The translations under genes were made by a program, and so were the position numbers. A stretch of DNA of 64,000 nt from Cenarchaeum sp. (GTDB lineage: Archaea; Thermoproteota; Nitrososphaeria; Nitrososphaerales; Nitrosopumilaceae), in the NCBI GenBank assembly GCA_965242695.1, contig CBDESU010000001.1:1536001-1600000 (forward strand), given 5' to 3'. Positions 1,919-13,583 of the stretch are shown piece after piece. Each line of letters starts with the position of its first letter. The first letter of the stretch is position 1. Under the pieces are notes generated by a model. It was not told the DNA's origin. It saw only the letters and a list, made by a program, of their open reading frames with translations, and did no database searches.

Positions 1919-3443
1919 CGCCGTCCTCATCCTCGCCGCCCGCCCCGTCGGGGCCCCCGGGCGGCGGGCCGGCCGGCACGACCGCGCCTATGTCGCACAG
2001 GTTCGTCCCCGTCTGCCCCGTGATCACCGGCCCGCCCGATATGGCCGCCCTTTCCCCTCTTCCCCCTGCCGCCCTTCCGGCCTGGACGGCCCATGTCGAT
2101 CGCTCCTCGAACAGGGCCCCCGTGTCGCTCCCCTCGATGTGCGACCTGACGGCGGCCGCATCGGCGGCGGCCGTCTCGGCGACGGCGCCGGCCGACGACG
2201 TCGTCCCGTCGATGCCGTCCGTTCCGATCGCGGCGACGACGGCCGGCTCGGCGGCCATCGCCGCGCCGCCCTCGGCGATCTCCAGCACTATCCGGGCCAC
2301 AATCTCCTGGCACCGTCCGCCCCTCCCCGATGCCTTCCCGCCGCGCGCCCGGCGCACCCTCACCGTAGTCTCGCCCCCGAACAGCACGCATGCATCGCCG
2401 CCCCCGCCGAGCTTCTCCCAGGCGGACGCGACGCGGGCTGCCGCATCCCCGACGTCGCCGCCTATCGAGATCGTCCTGGCCGAGTACCCCATCCCCCGCG
2501 CCCTCGACTCCATGGCCTCTAGGCAGGCCGTGTTCGTCGCCACGACGGCGTTTGGTATGACGGGGCCCTCGGGCGTGTCCGGCACGCGGCCGGCCGCCCC
2601 GTCGCGCAGCCTCTCGAGGACGGGCCGCGGCATGCGCCTGGACAGGCCGCGGCTCCGCGCGGCGGCGAGCGCGTCGGCAAACGTCGTCGGGTCCCCGTAC
2701 GTGGCGCCCGATGCCACTACGGCCGGATCGTCGCCCGGCACGTCGGACATGAGCAGGGCCGCCGCATCGCACGATGCGCCGGCGGCCAGCCTGCCGCCCT
2801 TTATCCGGGACAGGTGCTTTCGCACGCAGTTGATCTCGGATATTGGCGCGCCGGCGGCGGCGAGCAGATCCGCCGCCCGGGCCTTGTCGCCAAGGTCGAC
2901 GCCGTCGGGCATGCACAAGAGCGACGAGCCTCCCCCCGACACCAGGAACAGCAGCAGCTCCGACCCGCCCCTGTGCGCGACGTACCTCTCGACGGCGCGA
3001 GCCGCCTCGACGCTAGAGCGGTCGGGCTCGGGGTGCGCGGCCCTGAGCACCCTGAACCCGCGCCCCGGAGCCGCTCCCGGCGCGCCGGCCGGCGCCACGA
3101 CTATGCCGCCGTCGACCTTTGGCCCAAGCCACTCGCGCGCCGCCGCGGCCATGCCGAGCGCCGCCTTGCCGAACGCGACGACCTTTACGGAGCGGTACGG
3201 CGAGAGGTCGATCGGCCCGCTGCGCGGCGATCCTGGGCACCAGTCGGCGGCTATCTGCCCCGGCGTGGCGCCGGCCCTGCGCACGGCCTCGCGCGGGGAC
3301 GCGGCCTCTAGCCCCGCCATGAGCAGCTTGAGGGCGCGCCTGCGGGCCCTGCCCGTTGCCAGGGCGCGGTAGTTTGAGATGCCCGGCGGCCAGGTCAGGG
3401 CCGCCGCGCGCCGCGCGCCGCCGCCCCTGCCGGCCCCGGCCAT
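1905..3443 (-). CDS. Glycerate 2-kinase (MOFRL/DUF4147 family)
   Basis: FGKAA, AAHPEPD, LVSGGGSSL, RKHLSRIKGGRL, SDVPGDD, GGETTV, GTDGIDG and GQTGTNLCD motifs. Start chosen downstream of the TATA-like TATAATAAT at about 3466. Confidence 0.88.
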   Translation of the reverse strand: MAGAGRGGGARRAAALTWPPGISNYRALATGRARRRALKLLMAGLEAASPREAVRRAGATPGQIAADWCPGSPRSGPIDLSPYRSVKVVAFGKAALGMAAAAREWLGPKVDGGIVVAPAGAPGAAPGRGFRVLRAAHPEPDRSSVEAARAVERYVAHRGGSELLLFLVSGGGSSLLCMPDGVDLGDKARAADLLAAAGAPISEINCVRKHLSRIKGGRLAAGASCDAAALLMSDVPGDDPAVVASGATYGDPTTFADALAAARSRGLSRRMPRPVLERLRDGAAGRVPDTPEGPVIPNAVVATNTACLEAMESRARGMGYSARTISIGGDVGDAAARVASAWEKLGGGGDACVLFGGETTVRVRRARGGKASGRGGRCQEIVARIVLEIAEGGAAMAAEPAVVAAIGTDGIDGTTSSAGAVAETAAADAAAVRSHIEGSDTGALFEERSTWAVQAGRAAGGRGERAAISGGPVITGQTGTNLCDIGAVVPAGPPPGGPDGAGGEDEDGDGQE

Positions 3444-3495
3444 GCCGGCCCCGCCGCCTGCAACGTATAATAATGGTCGGCCGGCCGGCCGGCGC

Positions 3496-4440
3496 GTGCA
3501 CACCCTCAGGGTACCCCGCGACATACGGTTCGGCGCGGACGCGCTCGCCGAGACCGAGTACCCGGCCAACGCGCTCATCGTGACGACGGCGCCCCCAGAG
3601 ATGTCGTCCCGCTGGATCGACCGCATGGGCATACGCGACTACATGCTCTACGACAAGGTCACGCCCGAGCCGTCCATCGGGGACGTCGAGAGGCTCGTCT
3701 CCGAGTTCAAGCCGAGGTCGCCGTCGGCGCTGATCGGCCTCGGCGGCGGCAGCTCGCTCGACGTCGTAAAGTACTCGGCAGAGTCGTTCGGGGTGCCAAA
3801 GATACTCATCCCGACCACGTTCGGCACCGGCGCCGAGATGACCACGTACTGCGTCCTAAAGTTCGACGGCAAGAAAAAGCTCCTCCGCGAGGACCGCTTC
3901 CTGGCGGACACGGCCGTGATCGACTCTTTCTTCATGGACGGGACGCCCGAGCAGATCGTAAAGAACTCCGTATGCGACGCATGCGCGCAGGCGACCGAGG
4001 GGTACGACAGCAGGCTCGGCAACGACCTGACGCGGACGCTGTGCGGGCAGGCGTTCGACGTCCTGTACGACGCCATCATGAACGGCAAGCCCGAAAACTA
4101 CCCGTACGGGTCGATGCTGTCGGGCATGGGGTTCGGCAACTGCTCGACGACGCTCGGCCACGCCCTGTCGTACGTGTTTTCCAACGAGGGCGTGCCGCAC
4201 GGCTACTCGCTGTCGTCGTGCACGACGGTCGCCCACAGGCACAACAAGTCAAAGTTCTACGGGAGGTTCAAGGAGTGCATGGAAAAGCTCGGGTTCGACC
4301 GCCTCGACCTAAAGGCGGACGTGTCCGAGGCGGCAGACACCGTAATGACCGACCGCGGCCACCTCGACCCCAACCCCGTCCCGATCTCAAAGGAGGACGT
4401 GGTAAGGTGCCTCGAGGACATAAAGGCCGGCAGTCTCTAG
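3496..4440 (+). CDS. Iron-containing alcohol dehydrogenase; probable malonic semialdehyde reductase (3-hydroxypropionate dehydrogenase) of the thaumarchaeal 3HP/4HB cycle
   Basis: GLGGGSSLDVVK, IPTTFGTGAE and GHALSY...PHG Fe-ADH motifs. From memory the sequence closely resembles the Nitrosopumilus maritimus enzyme (Nmar_1110-type). GTG start at 3496. Confidence 0.8.
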   Translation: MHTLRVPRDIRFGADALAETEYPANALIVTTAPPEMSSRWIDRMGIRDYMLYDKVTPEPSIGDVERLVSEFKPRSPSALIGLGGGSSLDVVKYSAESFGVPKILIPTTFGTGAEMTTYCVLKFDGKKKLLREDRFLADTAVIDSFFMDGTPEQIVKNSVCDACAQATEGYDSRLGNDLTRTLCGQAFDVLYDAIMNGKPENYPYGSMLSGMGFGNCSTTLGHALSYVFSNEGVPHGYSLSSCTTVAHRHNKSKFYGRFKECMEKLGFDRLDLKADVSEAADTVMTDRGHLDPNPVPISKEDVVRCLEDIKAGSL

Positions 4441-4755
4441 TGGGCCGGCATGCGGCGCGGCGGCGCTCGGCGGCACGCCCACCATCCAATGCAAAACCGT
4501 TGCGCCATGAGTCTACCCGAGTACATGTCCCTCTTCCTCTCGTCCCTCCGCGCATGCCAGGCCCCCTCCGTCCCCGCACAGCGCCATCCCACGCCGCGTC
4601 GCCGCCTGCCGTCCCCCGCACAACTTTAATGTATCGACCACGAGTCCCCGCCGAGGGGGGTGTGCCAGGCATGGAGAATCGGGCAGCACACAGGCGTTCC
4701 GCAGGGCATGCGGACAGGAGGGTTGCGGTGGTGGCGGCGAGGTGCCGCGGCGGCA

Positions 4756-4863
4756 ATGCCGCGGGTGCATGCATCCCGGCCATGGTATGCACGCCTTCCG
4801 GCAAAGGGCACGCTCGACGAGATGAGGATGCCGCGGGTGCATGCATCCCGGCCATGGCATGCA
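4756..4863 (+). repeat. Two 36-bp direct repeats (ATGCCGCGGGTGCATGCATCCCGGCCATGG[T/C]ATGCA) separated by a 36-bp unique spacer
   Basis: Copies at 4756-4791 and 4828-4863 with 1 mismatch. Internal near-palindrome GGGTGCATGCATCCC. Confidence 0.85.
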
Positions 4864-4876
4864 GGGGGCGTACAGA

Positions 4877-6022
4877 ATGACCGCAATCCGAAGGCTCCCC
4901 AAGGTCAGCACGAGGAGAGAGTTCATACGCGTCCTCGAGGGCTGGATGGCCCCGTCAGGAGACGATGCGCCGGACGGCGGCGAGGATGCCGCCGCGGGCC
5001 GTCCGACGGACCTCAAGGCGTATGTGCTCGAGTCGAACGCCCCCCTCCGCAGGCGGGCCAAGACGGAACGGGCTAGATGGAGCATGTCCGATACGGGCAT
5101 CCCCGATCTAAAAATCATGAACGTCACGCTGGGCGCCGATGCCCCCGTGCAGTTTTTTGTCGATGTCAGCGACAATAGATTCATCACCATCCATACGAAC
5201 AACAGGGCCGAGGATATGGAGAAGGTCGTCGGCGCGCTAGTCGACGAGTCGTACGGCACGTTCGACAACATGTGGATGTACCATGGCATGCTCGACCACA
5301 TAGCAAAAAAAGTAGGAAGCGCCTTTGTGGGGTTTTCCATAAAGTATACCGACAGGCTGCTCGCCCGCACTGAAGCGAAGCACGATGCGTCAGTTCTTGA
5401 AGATCTGTACATAAATATCAGCGGCCGGAAGGCCACCCGCCTAAGGAACCTCGTAAAAAACGATCGAGACTTTCAAGATATAATGGCATACAAGAAGGTT
5501 CGTATCATGCGGGGCCCTCGCGGTGACGAGAAGGGCTATGTGCACGACGACATCGCAAGCACTGGATACTTTGCCGTCAAACACGGCAAATCGGTCCAAA
5601 ACCATCTGAGCATCGTCGAGGAATCCAAGGAGATATACTCTCGCGCCGTCAGAGGGGTGGAGGACTGCCGGCTAGGCATAGACAAATCCGGCGGCATGGC
5701 GATCGTCAAGGGACAGGCGCTCAATTTCACACTGTCAAAGCAGATAACCAACGTCGAGCAGTTTATCGACGTGGTCTTTAACACCGCCAAGCCGTTTCGG
5801 ATGAGCGGAATAAAATCCGTGATTCAGCCGGGGTATTACCGGGTCCTGGCCGTGGATCTGCACACGGGGGATCCCATGACGTTCGAAATTGCAAGGGGCA
5901 TCATGCGCGTCTACCTCTCGCAGCACAGCTGCGGCAACACGATCATGCGCCTGCTGACAAACCTGCAGTCGTCGTACGGAACAGATACGCGTTGCATGGA
6001 GGTGGATCAGATTGTTGGCTAG
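4877..6022 (+). CDS. Hypothetical protein (~380 aa), gene A of a two-gene nuclease operon
   Basis: Long lower-GC ORF with globular composition. C-terminal VLAVDLHTGDPMTFEI...CGNTIMRLLTNLQ segment resembles the C-terminus of 38514..39692. Confidence 0.8.
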   Translation: MTAIRRLPKVSTRREFIRVLEGWMAPSGDDAPDGGEDAAAGRPTDLKAYVLESNAPLRRRAKTERARWSMSDTGIPDLKIMNVTLGADAPVQFFVDVSDNRFITIHTNNRAEDMEKVVGALVDESYGTFDNMWMYHGMLDHIAKKVGSAFVGFSIKYTDRLLARTEAKHDASVLEDLYINISGRKATRLRNLVKNDRDFQDIMAYKKVRIMRGPRGDEKGYVHDDIASTGYFAVKHGKSVQNHLSIVEESKEIYSRAVRGVEDCRLGIDKSGGMAIVKGQALNFTLSKQITNVEQFIDVVFNTAKPFRMSGIKSVIQPGYYRVLAVDLHTGDPMTFEIARGIMRVYLSQHSCGNTIMRLLTNLQSSYGTDTRCMEVDQIVG

Positions 6023-6875
6023 CGGGCACACCCGGCTTCTGAACATGTTCATAGGCCTGTGCAACAGTAGCCCCACGTGGCCCACATTGCTCTACGACAT
6101 GGACTATGACATCATATTGATCGAGGAGAAGATAGCAGTGGGCAGGCATGCTACGGCTACCCCCGACCTTGTCGCATACTCTGGAAAGCATTCACATGCG
6201 ATCGTGGTCGAGTCCAAAAGTGGCCGCTCCATACAGTCCCACCAAGACGGATCCTATTCCATGCTTTCCACATCAGACCTTAAGCGGGGGGTCGTGGCCA
6301 CGGACTCGAAATTGAGCGGGCACGTAGCATGCTACGTCGTCAACCGCGACAACTATCCCAAGCTTGCAAGGCAGACGCGGCTTCCCTTCATAGTGTTCGG
6401 GAACGCCGTGGAGGGGCACGGCAACTTCGGAGAGAAGTCCCTCGACAAGGCCCTACACGCCGGAGCGCCGCTAAAAGGAATGCTAGAGCCGATTGCATAC
6501 TATCCGTTTTCCCACGGAGAGGATATCCGCATCATTGTTCCCCATGTGATCTCGGCGGTGATCTCCCTCATCCGGAATCCGGCAACCCGCTTAACCTTTG
6601 ACATAAATCGCCCCGATGCCGCCCACTCCGTTCTGACCATGGTGCATCCATACCACTCGGTGCTGGGACGCAAAGAAAAGACAGCGCTGACAAGAAAGAT
6701 ACGAAAGATCATCAAACAACTAATGCGTGAGAACCCAGAGCTTGCCGAGCAGGCCAAAAAAGTGCAGGGGCAAAGATCGACTCCGCAAGCGATCCATATG
6801 TTTGTGTCCGCGTGCCAGAAGGTAGGCAAGGACTACGCCGATCAGGGCAGGATCGACGGCGAGCGCTGGCAGTAG
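6012..6875 (+). CDS. Putative PD-(D/E)xK restriction-like nuclease, gene B
   Basis: TPDLVAYSG...IVVESKSG...QDGSY gives PD...ExK...QxxxY. Overlaps gene A, suggesting translational coupling. Confidence 0.65.
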   Translation: MLASGHTRLLNMFIGLCNSSPTWPTLLYDMDYDIILIEEKIAVGRHATATPDLVAYSGKHSHAIVVESKSGRSIQSHQDGSYSMLSTSDLKRGVVATDSKLSGHVACYVVNRDNYPKLARQTRLPFIVFGNAVEGHGNFGEKSLDKALHAGAPLKGMLEPIAYYPFSHGEDIRIIVPHVISAVISLIRNPATRLTFDINRPDAAHSVLTMVHPYHSVLGRKEKTALTRKIRKIIKQLMRENPELAEQAKKVQGQRSTPQAIHMFVSACQKVGKDYADQGRIDGERWQ

Positions 6876-7278
6876 CACGTGGCCGCCAATCTAGCGGGCA
6901 CATCGCAGTGCGAATAGGCAAAGTCGACGGGCGATCCCAAGGCACAATGCGCCCCCCCCCCTCCCTCCACGCCCGCTTGCCGTCCGCTCCGCATGCGGCG
7001 CCGCATGTCGGCAAATGTGGGCAGGATGCGTTCCAGTCCTCCGTCTGCCTCCGATTTTGCCGGTGGCCTTGCCGCGCCGGGCGCCGCGTCCTGCGCGCCT
7101 ACGCGAGATCTTGCCCACTACACGGGGTCCGGCGCCTTGGCAGGCCCTGCCGCCGCCATGGGCCGCGTGCGCCACATGAGCGCCTCCCCGCCATCGGCCA
7201 GCCCTGCGCCCCGCCCGCAAGCCGCCGGGCGCCGGCCGGCCGCACAGACTTATTTACCCGCGCTCGGCGGGCCGCCCA

Positions 7279-8373
7279 ATGGCGGGCCTCAAGTTCGGCA
7301 TCCAGAACGGCCTGAACGTGGCCCGCGCCGGCTACACCGAGGACCAGATACTGACGGCCTGCGTGCTAGCCGACAAGACGGGGTACGACTCGATCTTCTA
7401 CATGGACCACACGAACGTCCCGCAGTGGCGCAACGCGATCGTCCTGGACCCGTGGGTCATGCTCTCGTCGATCGCGGCCATGACGCGCAACGTAGAGCTC
7501 GGCACGTGCGTCACGGACGCCATACGCCGCCACCCGTCGAACATAGCCCTGGCCTCAATCACGCTCGACCGCGTCTCGCAGGGGCGCGCCATCCTCGGCA
7601 TCGGCGCCGGCGAGGCGCAGAACCTCAAGGAGTTTTGCATACCGTTCGAAAAGCCCGTCAGCAAGTGGGCCGAGCAGATCGAGGTCATCCGCTCCCTGTA
7701 CGGCTCGTCGCCGGACAACACGGTCGACTACAAGGGCAAGTACTACGAGCTCCAGGGTGCGTGCCTCCAGGCGCCGCCCATACGCAAGCCGCACCCGCCG
7801 ACGTACATGGCCGCCGGCGGCAAGCGCACGCTCGAGCTGACCGGCAAGCTCGGCGACGGCTGGCTGCCCATCGGGTACACGCCCGAGCTGTTCGAGGACC
7901 ACCGCCGCCAGATCGAGGCGTCGATGGAAAAGCACGGGCGGCCGCAGCAGGAGAGGGACGACTTCCAGATGGCCCTGGACATCGACGTGTACTTTTCCGA
8001 GGACGCCGAAGAGTCGTGGGCCAAGATGAAGGAGGCCGTAAAGGTGAGCCTGTTCAAGCCCGAGGTGCTGCGCGTGCACGGCCTAAAGGAGATCGAAGGA
8101 TTCGACTTTGTCAAGTACTTTACAGAGTACTCGATGTCCAACCAGGAGTGGATCGTAAAGATGCGCGAGGCGGCCCGCAAGATACCCGACGCGATAGCCC
8201 GCTCGTCGACCGCGATCGGCACGCCCGACGACATCATACCGACGTTCGAGCGGTTCGTAGAGGCAGGCGTCAACCACTTTGTCATACGGTTCTGGGGCAA
8301 GGACTACTTTGGCAGCATACACAAGTTCTCGACGTACGTGATGCCGCGCCTCCGCGAGGCGTACGCAAAGTAG
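7279..8373 (+). CDS. LLM-class (luciferase-like) F420-dependent oxidoreductase
   Basis: GYDSIFYMDH, DPWVMLSSIAAMT..VELGTCVT, GRAILGIGAG and GDGWLP motifs. Confidence 0.9.
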   Translation: MAGLKFGIQNGLNVARAGYTEDQILTACVLADKTGYDSIFYMDHTNVPQWRNAIVLDPWVMLSSIAAMTRNVELGTCVTDAIRRHPSNIALASITLDRVSQGRAILGIGAGEAQNLKEFCIPFEKPVSKWAEQIEVIRSLYGSSPDNTVDYKGKYYELQGACLQAPPIRKPHPPTYMAAGGKRTLELTGKLGDGWLPIGYTPELFEDHRRQIEASMEKHGRPQQERDDFQMALDIDVYFSEDAEESWAKMKEAVKVSLFKPEVLRVHGLKEIEGFDFVKYFTEYSMSNQEWIVKMREAARKIPDAIARSSTAIGTPDDIIPTFERFVEAGVNHFVIRFWGKDYFGSIHKFSTYVMPRLREAYAK

Positions 8374-8403
8374 CGCGCAGCCGGTGCCGGCCGGCGTCGG
8401 CGC

Positions 8404-8655
8404 CTACGCATTGCGCGGCCCGATCAGCAGGCGGATCATCTCTGGGGTGAACGACGCGGCATGCCTGTTGCGCGTGCGCAGGATGCGCTCTCCTAGCGCG
8501 GCCATGTCCGTGCACTTTTCGGCCATCTCGTTGGCCTCCCTCTCCTCGGCAGAGAGCGTTGCCGGCAGGGGCGTCTCGCGGGCCATGTAGTCGAAGAATG
8601 CCCTGTTCTCGTCTATGATGCGGCGGACGGCATCCTCAAATGGTTTATCTCCCAT
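8404..8655 (-). CDS. Small helical protein downstream of the Fic/Doc gene; candidate antitoxin
   Basis: 83 aa, charged; overlaps the Doc-like ORF by 11 nt. Confidence 0.5.
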   Translation of the reverse strand: MGDKPFEDAVRRIIDENRAFFDYMARETPLPATLSAEEREANEMAEKCTDMAALGERILRTRNRHAASFTPEMIRLLIGPRNA

Positions 8656-9070
8656 GCCGCCTCAGCCGAGGCCACAGGTATATCTGTGTTTTCGCCACCG
8701 TGTCGGGATCTAGGTACGCCCTGCGCCCCTGTATTTCGAAAAGTAGGCGCCGGAGGTGATCATCACCACCATCACCTCCCGGGCAGTCAAAGTCGAACCC
8801 GTTGCGGTTCAGCATCAACCTTGCTAGCGCCACGCCGGTCCTCTTGTTGGCGCCAGCGAACGGCTGGGCCCACGCGGTGCCGCACATAACGGTTGCAGCC
8901 TTGGCGCAGATGCCAGATGCCTTGTCGGTAAGATCAAGCACCTCTTGCATCCGTTCAGCGGCGAACGCAACGGCCTCGAAGGCCCCGGGGTTAGACTCGA
9001 GGTATGCCTCGACTATGACCTCATTGATGCGCCTAGCCTCGTCCAAGGTTGGCAGTCCACCGCCGTCCAT
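8645..9070 (-). CDS. Fic/Doc-family protein with a variant motif
   Basis: KAATVMCGTAWAQPFAGANKRTGVALARLMLNRNGF matches the Doc consensus HPFxDGNKRTA...FLxxNG. Confidence 0.8.
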   Translation of the reverse strand: MDGGGLPTLDEARRINEVIVEAYLESNPGAFEAVAFAAERMQEVLDLTDKASGICAKAATVMCGTAWAQPFAGANKRTGVALARLMLNRNGFDFDCPGGDGGDDHLRRLLFEIQGRRAYLDPDTVAKTQIYLWPRLRRHGR

Positions 9071-9360
9071 CTAGTCGCGGGGCGGAAGCGGGCGCTATAT
9101 TGCTTTTGTTCGGCACATGTCGCATAGCGCGCGTGGTGCCGTCACAAGCACACTCCGTTCGCCCCGGCCCACAAGGCTGTAGATCGCTCGCCGCATGCAG
9201 TGAGGGGGGTGCATGTGGGTTCTGACAAACAGGTAGCCAAGATTCCGCAATGGAATTGCATCGCGGGCAGGATGCCCCACCGCGCGACATCCAGCCGGAC
9301 GCCCGATGCAAGCGCCGCGGCCCGCCAAGCATTATAACGCGCGCGCCGGCCGCGGGCCGC

Positions 9361-10653
9361 GTGGCATTCGGGCGCACGCACGACATGGCCGGCCTCGACG
9401 AGTCGCTCGTCGGGCAGGAGGTCGGCATCGGCGGGTGGGTCGAGGACGTGCGCGGCATGGCGCGCATGACGTTCCTCGCCCTGCGCGACTCGACGGGCAG
9501 GGCGCAGGTCGTCGTAAAGGGCGACGATGCCGCCGTGTCGGCGGCAGCCTCCATCCCGCGCCAGAGCGCCGTCGTCGCAAGGGGAAGGGTCCAGGCCACG
9601 CGGGCGCGCGGCCTGTCAGTCGAGGTCGCCGCCGACTCTGTCGACGTGCTCGGCAGGGCATCGCCCCGCCTCCCGATCGACCCGACCGGCCGCCTCGAGA
9701 GCGGCCTGGACCTGCGCCTTGACGCGCGCGCGCTCGACATGCGCGGGCGCCGCGCGCCGGCCGTCTTTCGCATGCGGCACCACGCGCTTGCCGCGATCCG
9801 TGACGAGCTGTCGTCGGCCGGATTCACCGAGATTACGACGCCAAAGATCATCGGCAGCGCGAGCGAGGGCGGGGCCAACCTGTTCTCGCTAGAGTACTTT
9901 GGCAGGACGGCGTACCTGGCGCAGAGCCCGCAGCTGTACAAGGAGCAGATGACGATGGGGCTCGAGCGCGTCTACGAGATCGCCAACTTTTACCGGGCCG
10001 AAAAGTCGCACACGGGTCGGCACCTGACCGAGTTTACATCCGTAGACATAGAGGCCGCATTCATGGACTATACCGACGTCATGGACGTGCTCGAGGGGCT
10101 CGTCTCGGCAGTCTGCGCCCGCCTGTCCTCCAGGTGCGGGGCCGAGGCAGGGGAGCTGGGCGCGAGCATACCGAGCCCGAAGAGGCCGTTCGAGCGCGTA
10201 ACATACGGGCAGGCCGTGGCCGAGCTTGCAGAGGCCGGCGAGCCCGTAGAGTCCGGCGCAGACCTGCTCGACTCGCACCTGCGCATCATCGGCAGGAACC
10301 ACCCGGGGTTCTTCTTCCTGACCGACTGGCCGACGGCGCTAAAGCCGTTCTACATACGCGCAAAGGACGACGATCCGTCCCTGTCGAGGTCGTTCGACCT
10401 GCAGCACGGGTACCTCGAGCTGTCCTCGGGCGGGACGCGCCTGCACGACCCCGGCGCGATCGAGGAGCGCCTGCGCGGGCAGGGGCTCGACCCCGCGCAG
10501 TTCGCCGGCCACCTGAAGACGTTCGAGTGGGGCATGCCGCCGCACTCTGGGTGGGGGATGGGCCTGGACAGGCTCGTAGCCGTAATGGCCGGCCTGGACA
10601 ACGTGCGCGAGGCCGTCCTGTACCCGCGCGACCCCGACAGGCTCTCGCCGTAG
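9361..10653 (+). CDS. aspS: Aspartyl-tRNA synthetase (archaeal, probably non-discriminating)
   Basis: OB-fold (GGWVEDVR...FLALRDSTG), AYLAQSPQLYK, YRAEKSHTGRHLTEF and GMPPHSGWGMGLDRL motifs; ends YPRDPDRLSP. Confidence 0.96.
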   Translation: MAFGRTHDMAGLDESLVGQEVGIGGWVEDVRGMARMTFLALRDSTGRAQVVVKGDDAAVSAAASIPRQSAVVARGRVQATRARGLSVEVAADSVDVLGRASPRLPIDPTGRLESGLDLRLDARALDMRGRRAPAVFRMRHHALAAIRDELSSAGFTEITTPKIIGSASEGGANLFSLEYFGRTAYLAQSPQLYKEQMTMGLERVYEIANFYRAEKSHTGRHLTEFTSVDIEAAFMDYTDVMDVLEGLVSAVCARLSSRCGAEAGELGASIPSPKRPFERVTYGQAVAELAEAGEPVESGADLLDSHLRIIGRNHPGFFFLTDWPTALKPFYIRAKDDDPSLSRSFDLQHGYLELSSGGTRLHDPGAIEERLRGQGLDPAQFAGHLKTFEWGMPPHSGWGMGLDRLVAVMAGLDNVREAVLYPRDPDRLSP

Positions 10654-10713
10654 CGCGCGGGCCCCCGCATACTTGGGAATATCCTTTAATGCAAAACGGG
10701 GCGGCCGCTCTGC

Positions 10714-11547
10714 ATGGGCGCGGACGTGACCCTGGCGATAGCGGCCCTTGCGGGCCTCGGCTCGTTCGTCGCCCCGTGCGTCCTGCCGATGATCCCCGCG
10801 TTCCTTGCGTACATATCGGGCACGACCGTCTCGGAGATGGCGCGCGCGGCGCCAGGCGGGGCCGCCTCGGGGGGGACCCCGAGGCGCGGCATGGATGGCC
10901 CCGGCAGGACGGCGGCGGCCGCGGCGGGGGCGGCGGCGGCGACCGTGCCCGACCCCGCCGCCTCTGTGAGCCGCGCCGGCATCATGCTCAACACGGCGTT
11001 CTTCGTCCTCGGCTTTTCCGTCGTGTTCGCAGCCGTCGGGGCCCTGATAAACAGCGTCCTGGCCGAGTCCGCCTCGGGGTTCGTGTCGGGGTTCAACCAG
11101 GTCGGAGGCGCCATCATAATCGCGTTCGGCGCGTTCATGCTGCTCTCGACGCGCGTGCGCTTCCTCAACCTCGAGAGGCGCCTCGTCCCCAGGAGGGCGG
11201 GCGCGAGCTACCCGATGTCGTTCGTGTTCGGCCTGTCGTTTGCCGCCGGATGGACGCCGTGCGTGGGGCCCGTCCTGGGCACGATACTGACCCTTGCGGC
11301 GGCGACGCCGTCGACTGCGTTCGGGCTGCTGCTCGCGTACTCGCTCGGCCTGGGCGTGCCGTTCCTGCTGATGGGGGCGTTCTTCTCGCGGGCCACCCCC
11401 GTCATACGCGCCATGGGCCGCCACATGAGGCACTACACGGTCGCCGTCGGCCTGCTCATAGTGCTGCTCGGCGCGCTTGTGATCACGGGCCAGCTCTCGC
11501 ACCTGGCCAGCTTTCCCCTCCTCAACGAGCTGGTGCTGCTCGGATGA
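10714..11547 (+). CDS. ccdA: Cytochrome c biogenesis CcdA / DsbD transmembrane domain protein
   Basis: AGLGSFVAPCVLPMIP and GWTPCVGPVLG Cys motifs, with multiple hydrophobic segments. Confidence 0.9.
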   Translation: MGADVTLAIAALAGLGSFVAPCVLPMIPAFLAYISGTTVSEMARAAPGGAASGGTPRRGMDGPGRTAAAAAGAAAATVPDPAASVSRAGIMLNTAFFVLGFSVVFAAVGALINSVLAESASGFVSGFNQVGGAIIIAFGAFMLLSTRVRFLNLERRLVPRRAGASYPMSFVFGLSFAAGWTPCVGPVLGTILTLAAATPSTAFGLLLAYSLGLGVPFLLMGAFFSRATPVIRAMGRHMRHYTVAVGLLIVLLGALVITGQLSHLASFPLLNELVLLG

Positions 11548-12797
11548 CCGGCGAAAAAAGGCCGGCGGGCAGGGCCGCGCTCTACACGGGGATCGGCGTG
11601 GCCGCGACGGTCGCCGCGCTCGCCGTCGGCCTTGCCGCGCTCGACGACCAGGCGGCGACCGTCGGCGGCCCCGGGGGATCCGCAACGGGAATGCCGCCCG
11701 ACGCGCCCGTCACCGCGGCCGGCACGATAGACAAGTCGCGGTTCCGCCAGGCGCCCGGGCTTGCCGGCATCGCCGCCTACATCAACACGGCCGGCGCCGA
11801 CGAGCTCGCCGCCGAGATCGACGGCAAGGTCGTCCTGTACGACATCTGGACGTACTCTTGCATCAACTGCATCCGGACGCTCCCGCACCTGACGGCCTGG
11901 TCCGAAAAGTACGCCGAGGACGGCCTCGTCGTCGTCGGCGTGCACTCGCCCGAGTTCGAGTTCGAAAAGGACGAGTCGAACGTGCGCCGCGCCGTGGAAA
12001 AGCACGGGATAGCATACCCCGTCGTAATGGACAACGACATGGAGACGTGGGACGCCTTCAAGAACCGCTACTGGCCGCACCGCTTCCTGGCCGACCACGA
12101 GGGGTACATCCGGTACGACCACATCGGCGAGGGCGCGTACCCCGAGACCGAGCGCGTCCTGCAGGGGCTGCTCGCCGAGAGGTCTGCCGCGCTCGGCGCG
12201 GCTGCCGGGGAGGCTCCCGAGCCAGTCGGCGCATCCGATGCCGCCGGCATGGATCTCGTCGACCTCGAGGCTTTCGAGCACACGCGGTTCATGACGCCCG
12301 AGCTGTACCTCGGGTACGCGTTCGCGTACGGCCGCAGCCACCTCGGAAACGCCGAGGGGTTCTCGCCCGGCTCGGACGTAGAGTACGCGCTGCCCGCGGC
12401 GGCCGGCGAGCGGCGCGACCTGTTCTACGTCGGCGGCACGTGGGCCAACGAGGAGGGCCACATGCGGCTCGTCTCCGAGTCCGGCTCGATCGTCGTCCGC
12501 TACTATGCAAAGGAGGTCAATATAGTCGCCGGCGGCGATGCCGAGATCGAGGTCACCGTCGACGGCAGGCCGGTTCCCGAGGGGCTGCGCGGATCGGACA
12601 TGGGCGTACCGGCGGCGCCCGGAGCCCCCGCGGGCGGCCAGGCGCAGGCCGAGGTGTCGGACGCCCCAGCCACCGTCGTCCCCGTCGCGGGCCACGACCT
12701 GTACAACGTCGTCAGCGGCGGGCAGGCCGAGGAGCACGTCCTGCGGCTCGACGTGAGGGGGCCCGGCCTGGCGGTGTACACGTTCACGTTCGGGTAG
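11544..12797 (+). CDS. Membrane-anchored thioredoxin-like protein (DipZ C-terminal type)
   Basis: N-terminal TM, DIWTYSCINCIRTLP, GVHSPEFEFEK and TPELYLG motifs; ends YTFTFG. ATGA overlap with ccdA. Confidence 0.9.
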   Translation: MTGEKRPAGRAALYTGIGVAATVAALAVGLAALDDQAATVGGPGGSATGMPPDAPVTAAGTIDKSRFRQAPGLAGIAAYINTAGADELAAEIDGKVVLYDIWTYSCINCIRTLPHLTAWSEKYAEDGLVVVGVHSPEFEFEKDESNVRRAVEKHGIAYPVVMDNDMETWDAFKNRYWPHRFLADHEGYIRYDHIGEGAYPETERVLQGLLAERSAALGAAAGEAPEPVGASDAAGMDLVDLEAFEHTRFMTPELYLGYAFAYGRSHLGNAEGFSPGSDVEYALPAAAGERRDLFYVGGTWANEEGHMRLVSESGSIVVRYYAKEVNIVAGGDAEIEVTVDGRPVPEGLRGSDMGVPAAPGAPAGGQAQAEVSDAPATVVPVAGHDLYNVVSGGQAEEHVLRLDVRGPGLAVYTFTFG

Positions 12798-12911: not shown

Positions 12912-13583
12912 ATGCACACCAAATGGACGGACTCTGGGAGGCGGGCGAACCTGTCGGGCAGGGTAATGTCCAGGGTGCGCCACGAGGCGCCCCTCAAGAG
13001 CCGCATAGCGGCCGCCCGCGGCGGCCTCGGTTCGCAGGTCGAAAAGCTCGCATCCCTTGACGAAAAGCTCAGGCGCAAGGAGCGGGGCATATTCGAGAGG
13101 ATCGTCGCGGCCACAAAGTCCAACGACCACGCGCACGCGCGCATGTACGCGTCGGAGCTAGCCGAGGTGCGCAAGATACTGCGCATCGTGGACAACGCAA
13201 AGCTGTCGCTCGAGCAGATACGGATACGCCTCGACACCATCTCCGAGATGGGCGACATCGTCGTGACGCTCACGCCGTGCATGGCCGTCATCAAGGACGT
13301 GAGCGCGTCAGTCGGCGGGCTCATCCCCGAGGCGAACTCTTCCATAGGCGACCTCTCGCGCATACTCGGCGAGGTCCTGTCCGACTCGCAGGTCGGCGAC
13401 GCGGCCGTCTCGGCCGCCGGCGCGGCCGTCTCGGCCGGCGCGGCCGGCGGCGCGAGCCCCGAGGCGTCTAGCATACTCGACGAGGCGCAGGCGCTCGTCG
13501 CCGGCCAGGCCAAGGCGAGCCTGCCCGACCTGCCCGACAACCTCAAGCAGGACATACTGAGCCGGCGCGAGGCGTACGCCTAG
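12912..13583 (+). CDS. cdvB: ESCRT-III / Snf7 family cell-division protein (CdvB paralogue)
   Basis: Coiled-coil Snf7 pattern: ARMYASELAEVRK...KLSLEQIRIRLDTISEMGDIVVTL...ILDEA...LPDLP. Confidence 0.88.
   Translation: MHTKWTDSGRRANLSGRVMSRVRHEAPLKSRIAAARGGLGSQVEKLASLDEKLRRKERGIFERIVAATKSNDHAHARMYASELAEVRKILRIVDNAKLSLEQIRIRLDTISEMGDIVVTLTPCMAVIKDVSASVGGLIPEANSSIGDLSRILGEVLSDSQVGDAAVSAAGAAVSAGAAGGASPEASSILDEAQALVAGQAKASLPDLPDNLKQDILSRREAYA

Follow-up and report, generated by a model that had tools for sequence, protein, structure and literature searches.

A mobile, co-inherited gene pair of the MJECL33 and MJECL32 families in Cenarchaeum sp., a candidate DNA-sensing nuclease system

The two overlapping genes described here, A and B, encode a protein pair that occurs patchily, is mobile and is coupled across archaea and bacteria. 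We favor, with a rough probability of 0.55, the explanation that they form a co-inherited, DNA-sensing abortive nuclease system directed against viruses and plasmids, similar to GAPS4 without being GAPS4. The copy studied lies in a stretch of 64,000 nucleotides from Cenarchaeum sp. (assembly GCA_965242695.1, contig CBDESU010000001.1, positions 1,536,001 to 1,600,000 of the forward strand), hereafter the window, whose relevant features are as follows.

3379-4440: iron-containing alcohol dehydrogenase, flanking neighbor of the pair
4441..7185, no strand: outer limits of the inserted segment, from alignment to the closest relative
4756..4863, plus strand: 36-nt repeat in two copies, 97% alike and 72 nt apart, directly upstream of A
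4877..6022, plus strand: gene A, ATG to TAG, 381 aa, MJECL33 family (PF25924)
5998-6004, plus strand: GGAGGTG, ribosome-binding-like site for B within the end of A, from the sequence
up to 6022, plus strand: 11-nt overlap of A and B, from the sequence
6012..6875, plus strand: gene B, TTG start (6015 also possible) to TAG, 287 aa, MJECL32 family (PF27326)
7279-8373: F420-type LLM oxidoreductase, flanking neighbor of the pair

The original prediction had described a gene of about 380 aa overlapping a second one, in a low-GC island amid housekeeping genes and with no adjacent methyltransferase, and all of this is borne out by the layout above, the immediate neighbors being the alcohol dehydrogenase and the LLM oxidoreductase. 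The pair has 56.1% GC compared to 68.2% for the window, a value as low as that being found in only 3.1% of 2-kb windows of the contig (C1), and its GC3 is 0.73 in A and 0.70 in B against 0.89-0.91 in three flanking genes; the host genome, of 3.9 Mb, has 68% GC. The arrangement of the two frames suggests that A and B are translationally coupled. Two public runs have contigs that cover the pair. That of X1, which may be the source sample, shows 0 differences over 4272-8500, whereas that of X5, a metagenome run on a sponge from a different study, shows 77 substitutions over 4834-8500. Its listed indels all fall outside genes A and B, and 12 of the differences listed lie within A, 4 of them residue-changing. 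The frames of A and B are therefore no assembly artefact; the origin of X5 additionally points to an association of the host with sponges. RNA runs do not figure among the listed holders of this stretch, a result with no bearing on expression.

The pair is missing at this site in all four of the same-genus genomes (4/4), where the dehydrogenase gene is followed by the LLM gene within ~100-480 bp. Particularly, the alignment to the closest relative ends at 4438 and restarts at 7186, ~480 bp separating the flanking genes in that genome. The empty site in 4/4 genomes therefore identifies the pair as an insertion here. A search of this locus for insertion-site duplications and terminal repeats settled on none, and 4441..7185 gives the outer limits of the insert. 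A third copy of the 36-nt repeat, inverted, is found ~17 kb away (G000:C1:1523600-1523634).

Two other features of the window deserve mention in their own right. At 8404-9070 on the minus strand, two small overlapping ORFs of 141 and 83 aa, also found in the closest relative, are possibly a Doc-like toxin-antitoxin pair, as the sequence hints; the motif AQPFAGANKRTG of the 141-aa ORF resembles, in our estimation, a Fic/Doc motif minus its histidine, and neither ORF has an NCBIfam match at 1e-10. The ORF at 12912-13583 (plus strand) looks to us like a paralogue of the CdvB/ESCRT-III cell-division proteins.

The pair, which could not at first be assigned to a named family, does belong to named ones, as A falls in MJECL33 and B in MJECL32 of Pfam 38. 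Precomputed Pfam labels give PF25924 for 46/46 A matches and PF27326 for 11/11 B matches, the labelled proteins including some that are 98% (A) and 94% (B) identical, and the Atlas likewise returns MJECL33 (0.97) and MJECL32 (0.95); the profile of A retrieves 733 clusters at 50% identity. The genes that give these families their names overlap on the Methanocaldococcus jannaschii plasmid NC_001732, in the same A-then-B order and close to an OLD-like nuclease and VapBC, and they score 339 (A) and 94 (B) bits with the profiles built here, although the plasmid B protein (~438 aa) is longer than ours (287 aa). Both plasmid genes are annotated as 'hypothetical protein', and both Pfam families carry no function.

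Searches against described systems returned nothing that fits the pair, as anticipated. The window proteins gave only two weak and unrelated rows (E 0.17 and 0.035) against local Pfam, PADLOC and NCBIfam, and 0/2 of them matched PADLOC-DB 2.0, which holds no systems described after 2023; no PADLOC 2.0 or NCBIfam system fits. Extending the search to 55 relatives of B (PADLOC and NCBIfam) and 97 relatives of A (PADLOC) gave no real match: at E<=0.01 in PADLOC, the B rows hit two families with one member each (best 3.6e-5) and 2/97 A proteins gave a hit (best 7e-4). A sequence search of solved structures found nothing real for A or B and no similar complex. Searches of open-access papers by names, Pfam identifiers, accession and topic, the last judged by title and opening of the abstract, found none on the MJECL33/MJECL32 pair; a candidate list within some supplement could hold the pair. 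The accessible portions of PMC6393860 and PMC12839542 carry no mention of it. What this locus adds is a fold lead for A, a mapped interface, a multi-copy expansion and a one-sided decay.

B is a predicted PD-(D/E)xK nuclease. Its model (pLDDT 93.5) comprises an N-terminal PD-(D/E)xK domain (residues 1-150), a linker and a C-terminal helical domain, and the restriction-like fold that had been proposed for it agrees with the model: residues 2-142 align to SdaI with Z 8.2 (rmsd 3.0, 111 aligned; VIA-align) and XisH follows with Z 8.1. The top 13 structural rows all align to the N-terminal part, and most of the named ones we take to be PD-(D/E)xK proteins; fold matches include SdaI, BsmI, FokI, BstEII, XisH, NucS, Bax1 and Hjc. 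Foldseek gave no PDB match at E<=0.001 for either protein, and the weak-E matches of B agree with a restriction-like domain. The motifs first noticed in B are present as described (PDLV at B51-54, VESKSG at B66-71 and QDGSY at B78-82), the catalytic residues E38, D52, E67 and K69 being intact and Q78 and Y82 also in place. Over 55 aligned B rows, these positions are kept in 55 (K69), 54 (Y82), 54 (E/D67), 53 (E38), 53 (Q78) and 52 (D52).

The model of A (pLDDT 92.9) consists of three TBP-like alpha/beta domains, of which residues ~11-259 are predicted to be arranged like RdgC/CENP-L/Iml3 and residues ~263-377 to be the docking domain for B. Residues 11-259 align to CENP-L with Z 6.5 (rmsd 5.7, 188 aligned), to RdgC with Z 6.0 (rmsd 5.3, 185 aligned) and to Iml3 with Z 5.3 (~185 residues), all of them below the Z of 8 under which, by the tool's own guide, a match may reflect only a common arrangement, and which no row for A reaches. 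Residues 263-377 match KA1, CENP-N and TBP-like domains with Z 6-7. In a viral library, phage RdgC-like models match A at probabilities of 0.97-1.00. Chains of Kiwa, YejK and RexA are absent among the fold rows listed for A and are not excluded thereby. With Z values below 8, the kinship of A with RdgC/CENP-L is taken as a lead only.

A carries an invariant motif of the form D-x-H...CGN...R...N-x-Q (D327, H329, C352-G-N354, R358 and Q364), together with conserved basic residues at K47, R101, R308, R344 and R358. In the complex model this motif lies mostly outside the listed interface residues with B. It could be an active site, one that our favored explanation leaves unexplained.

The products of A and B are predicted to form one complex. 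The model of the 1:1 pair scores 0.87, while the best of three controls scores 0.00, and the mark applied to this score is attained by 116/157 solved complexes and by 2/215 mismatched pairs, figures that are rough when our own alignments are used. Between complex runs, at least 79% of contacts recur, with a partner pLDDT of at least 83. The predicted interface joins A 265-350 with B 158-165, 177-193, 210-217 and 258-278, so that the linker and helical domain of B would contact the third domain of A; the catalytic residues D52, E67 and K69 are not among the interface residues listed in the model.

The coupling of the two genes extends well beyond this locus, in agreement with the co-localization that had been expected of their homologues. 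B stands directly behind A in 14/16 genome loci and in 31/33 metagenome loci, one of the latter two misses being at a contig end and many of these loci being near-duplicates, and A comes first in every locus where both genes are found. Among the 301 family genomes of one sample, A is present in 18 and B in 16, all 16 with A too; intact B without A was not found among these 301 genomes, save for contig-edge cases and one 61-aa fragment. Six distant Bacillota loci comprise one clear B, three divergent ORFs with P(D/E)...ECK and two unconfirmed cases; in L078, L165 and L167, the ORF that follows A is not confirmed as B. Trees of 38 intact pairs display the same main clades for A and B, and the pairwise identities of the two proteins correlate with a Spearman coefficient of 0.90 over these 38 pairs, with broken copies left out and kin inflating the value. 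Median pairwise identity is 33% for A and 30% for B.

With a midpoint root, this copy falls within a Nitrososphaerota clade, sister to Bathyarchaeia rows. The named rows around this copy suggest a host of the Nitrosopumilaceae type, an ammonia-oxidising archaeon. Of the horizontal acquisition first suggested, insertion at this site is shown by the 4/4 empty sites; the tree position looks like movement among related archaea, no donor being claimed, and not like a recent bacterial import. Prevalence is ~1%, A being found in 4/401 genomes of the host's phylum (all four in the host's own family) and, with the centre genomes of these two samples included, in 4/401 genomes of a Bathyarchaeia-class sample and 6/401 of a Bacillota sample. 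Within Nitrosopumilaceae, A clusters in a few genera (2/4, 4/5, 4/5 and 3/10 genomes) and is rare in the large ones (1/37, 1/37, 0/31, 0/37 and 0/37). One same-genus genome holds up to 7 copies, scattered among housekeeping genes. The host genome has four A copies, only one of them inside the window; two have an open B, one has a B frameshifted near residue 223 and one a decayed B, and the other copies are 41-43% identical to the A at 4877-6022.

Several variants of the pair were observed along the way. In a genus designated g12 (L116 at 7393-11876, L117, L118 and L122-L128), the pair is represented by several copies of a divergent subfamily, a few of which stand in tandem. B is shorter there (~240-270 aa), and good matches to A are confined to the C-terminal half. 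A protein of 655 aa (P0199) has the A domain at residues 316-643 and is a possible fusion, and in L078 (3319-4554, plus strand) A is followed by a 412-aa ORF without a match to the B profile, possibly a swapped effector.

Decay of the pair is markedly one-sided. We scored by hand 33 full-type copies, leaving out three contig-end copies and the divergent g12 copies. Intact pairs account for 12/33 and open pairs with damage to the catalytic motif of B for 2/33 (L105 and L034); A is open with B broken or absent in 13/33, A is damaged with B open in 2/33 (one insertion, one in-frame deletion), and both genes are broken in 4/33. B is therefore the gene hit in 13/15 one-sided lesions (binomial p 0.0006, given gene lengths of 287 codons for B and 381 for A). 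Assembly errors would be expected in A at least as often. One-sided decay suggests that B is a costly nuclease restrained by A, or else that A has some use on its own. A role of A as a pure activator agrees less well with it, because the loss of such an activator would remove the cost equally. In L108, an insertion splits A while B stays open, a case that would speak against strict toxicity of free B.

The surroundings of the pair give a divided answer to the proposal that it resides in defence islands. Outside Nitrosopumilaceae the proposal is supported: PADLOC neighbors (E<=1e-20) occur in 12/29 loci and in 0/8 controls (Fisher p 0.028), the test loci including close kin. The 12/29 combine 9/23 loci, from 105 hand-picked neighbor ORFs over all loci, with 3/6 Bacillota loci, and the control set is small, with 8 windows at fixed contig positions in 8 genomes, one 761-bp window having been left out. 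These neighbors include restriction-modification (R-M), pAgo, Avs2, Lamassu LmuB, type III CRISPR and OLD, with R-M as the commonest (7 of the 12 positive loci). Within Nitrosopumilaceae enrichment was not found (7/19 loci vs 5/16 random windows, p 0.51), the test being negative there since defence genes abound throughout these genomes. Hits to mad2 (methyltransferases in L053 and L054), DinG (L116), IetA (L117 and L120) and SspA/DndA (control L137) were left out as housekeeping. Some loci adjoin provirus capsid genes, Tn7 genes or ICE genes, and others are on plasmids; a viral collection yielded a single locus, with an ORF layout identical to that of the ICE locus L081. Most homologous loci hold no methyltransferase, and in L075 a type IIG-like gene lies upstream of the pair in the same direction.

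Two further observations come from these loci. In L166 (8543-12434, minus strand), a distant A-B pair stands directly downstream of, and co-directional with, type III CRISPR cas10-cas5-cas7. Among the random 12-kb Nitrosopumilaceae windows (L135-L150), several hold giant ORFs of 1,700-4,000 codons.

The explanation that we favor, a GAPS4-like abortive system, would work as follows. A would clamp DNA via its RdgC/CENP-L-like part, possibly as a dimer, while its third domain would hold nuclease B in check, a restraint suggested by the one-sided decay. Invading or damaged DNA may be the trigger, upon which B would be released, leading to non-specific breakdown of DNA and presumably to cell death. 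Constitutive sequence-specific restriction is unlikely, because no self-marking methyltransferase is linked to the pair. Against the abortive system stand the lack of enrichment within Nitrosopumilaceae, the location of this copy amid housekeeping genes, the split A beside an open B in L108 and the loss of catalytic residues in two open B copies (L105 and L034). A broader version of it can be offered tentatively, at less than even odds: an undescribed immune system common to bacteria and archaea and built on an archaeal relative of the RdgC/RexA/CENP-L clamps, which would sense invading DNA and also cage a PD-(D/E)xK suicide nuclease. The pair would have expanded, with 4-7 copies per genome, among ammonia-oxidising archaea associated with sponges, the costly nuclease gene having been lost there time and again.

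Other explanations account for part of these results. The pair might be an addiction module similar to type II toxin-antitoxins, with B as a DNase toxin and A as its antitoxin, stabilizing itself or its element with no sensing of viruses. The upstream position of A with its 11-nt overlap and predicted binding to B, the lack of intact B without A in 301 genomes (contig edges and the 61-aa fragment apart), the fact that B is the first to decay in 13/15 one-sided lesions, and the scatter of copies amid housekeeping genes, with up to 7 in a single same-genus genome, and their carriage by plasmids, ICEs and Tn7 all speak for it. We consider it unlikely, however: typical type II antitoxins are small and labile, whereas A exceeds B in both size and conservation (33% vs 30%) and has many invariant polar residues. 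Moreover, D52, E67 and K69 of B fall outside the listed interface, defence neighbors are common outside Nitrosopumilaceae, and L108 retains B beside a split A.

A DNA-processing role is suggested by the structural matches, with an RdgC-like clamp steering a structure-specific nuclease to junctions or ends in the recombination or repair of mobile elements. RdgC, CENP-L and Iml3 are the longest structural matches of A, to which the phage RdgC-like models (0.97-1.00) are added, B matches XisH, NucS, Bax1 and Hjc among others, and a number of the loci belong to proviruses, ICEs or Tn7 elements. Across loci there is, nevertheless, no consistent integrase, helicase or replication partner, the only viral contig has the ORF layout of the ICE locus L081, and a prevalence of ~1% together with frequent loss of B speaks against a housekeeping repair role, making this role distinctly improbable in our judgement. 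Very unlikely as well is that the pair serves as an accessory backup nuclease of R-M or BREX-related systems, or as a modification-dependent restriction enzyme, the copy in the window being an orphan. R-M genes are indeed the commonest defence neighbors outside the family (7 of 12 positive loci), L075 has its co-directional type IIG-like gene, and PD-(D/E)xK nucleases are described as the most frequent backup effectors for systems of this kind in the accessible part of PMC12839542, a text that in the same part makes no mention of MJECL, RdgC, TBP, YejK or CENP. The R-M neighbor, however, varies in orientation and type and is lacking in most loci, and neither A nor B matched a reader domain for modified bases.

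If the abortive-system explanation is true, a function would be given to two Pfam families, MJECL33 and MJECL32, a two-gene immune system would be added for archaea, where few systems have been tested, and the RdgC/RexA/CENP-L fold would be extended to a nuclease-coupled sensor. The pair is readily testable: both genes are short, the catalytic residues are clear, an interface is predicted, and there are mesophilic bacterial homologues, the Paenibacillus pair (L016) among them.

Compared to known systems, type II restriction-modification shares the fold of B (SdaI, BsmI, FokI and BstEII) and differs in having a linked methyltransferase, in place of which an obligate non-methylase partner is found here. 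Type II toxin-antitoxins are alike in that an upstream partner is predicted to bind the effector and the effector is not kept alone, with L108 as the counter-case. RexA, RdgC and IML3/CHL4 (CENP-L/N) are dimeric, non-specific DNA binders, and RexA is part of a phage exclusion system, as described in the accessible part of PMC11077077. Their fold provides the best alignment for residues 11-259 of A, yet with Z of only 5.3-6.5, and A has a third TBP-like domain that this fold lacks. The partner of A is a predicted nuclease, whereas that of RexA is RexB, a membrane protein.

GAPS4 offers a precedent for the favored explanation. According to the accessible text of PMC13748975, it consists of two genes, a PD-(D/E)xK nuclease and a larger partner that form a complex, a dimer of the partner is predicted to encircle DNA, suicide is triggered by DNA damage, and the homologues described are bacterial only. 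In that text, GAPS4 resembles A/B as a two-gene complex of a nuclease and a larger partner with no methyltransferase described. Its GAPS4a motif, given there as HGxD-SxK (PMC13748975), is absent here, B having TPD...ESK and its family PD...(E/D)CK and QxxxY. Additionally, the nuclease comes first in GAPS4, an order taken from the a/b naming and the consecutive accessions, and second in our pair. The motif and gene order so described for GAPS4 set the A/B pair apart from it.
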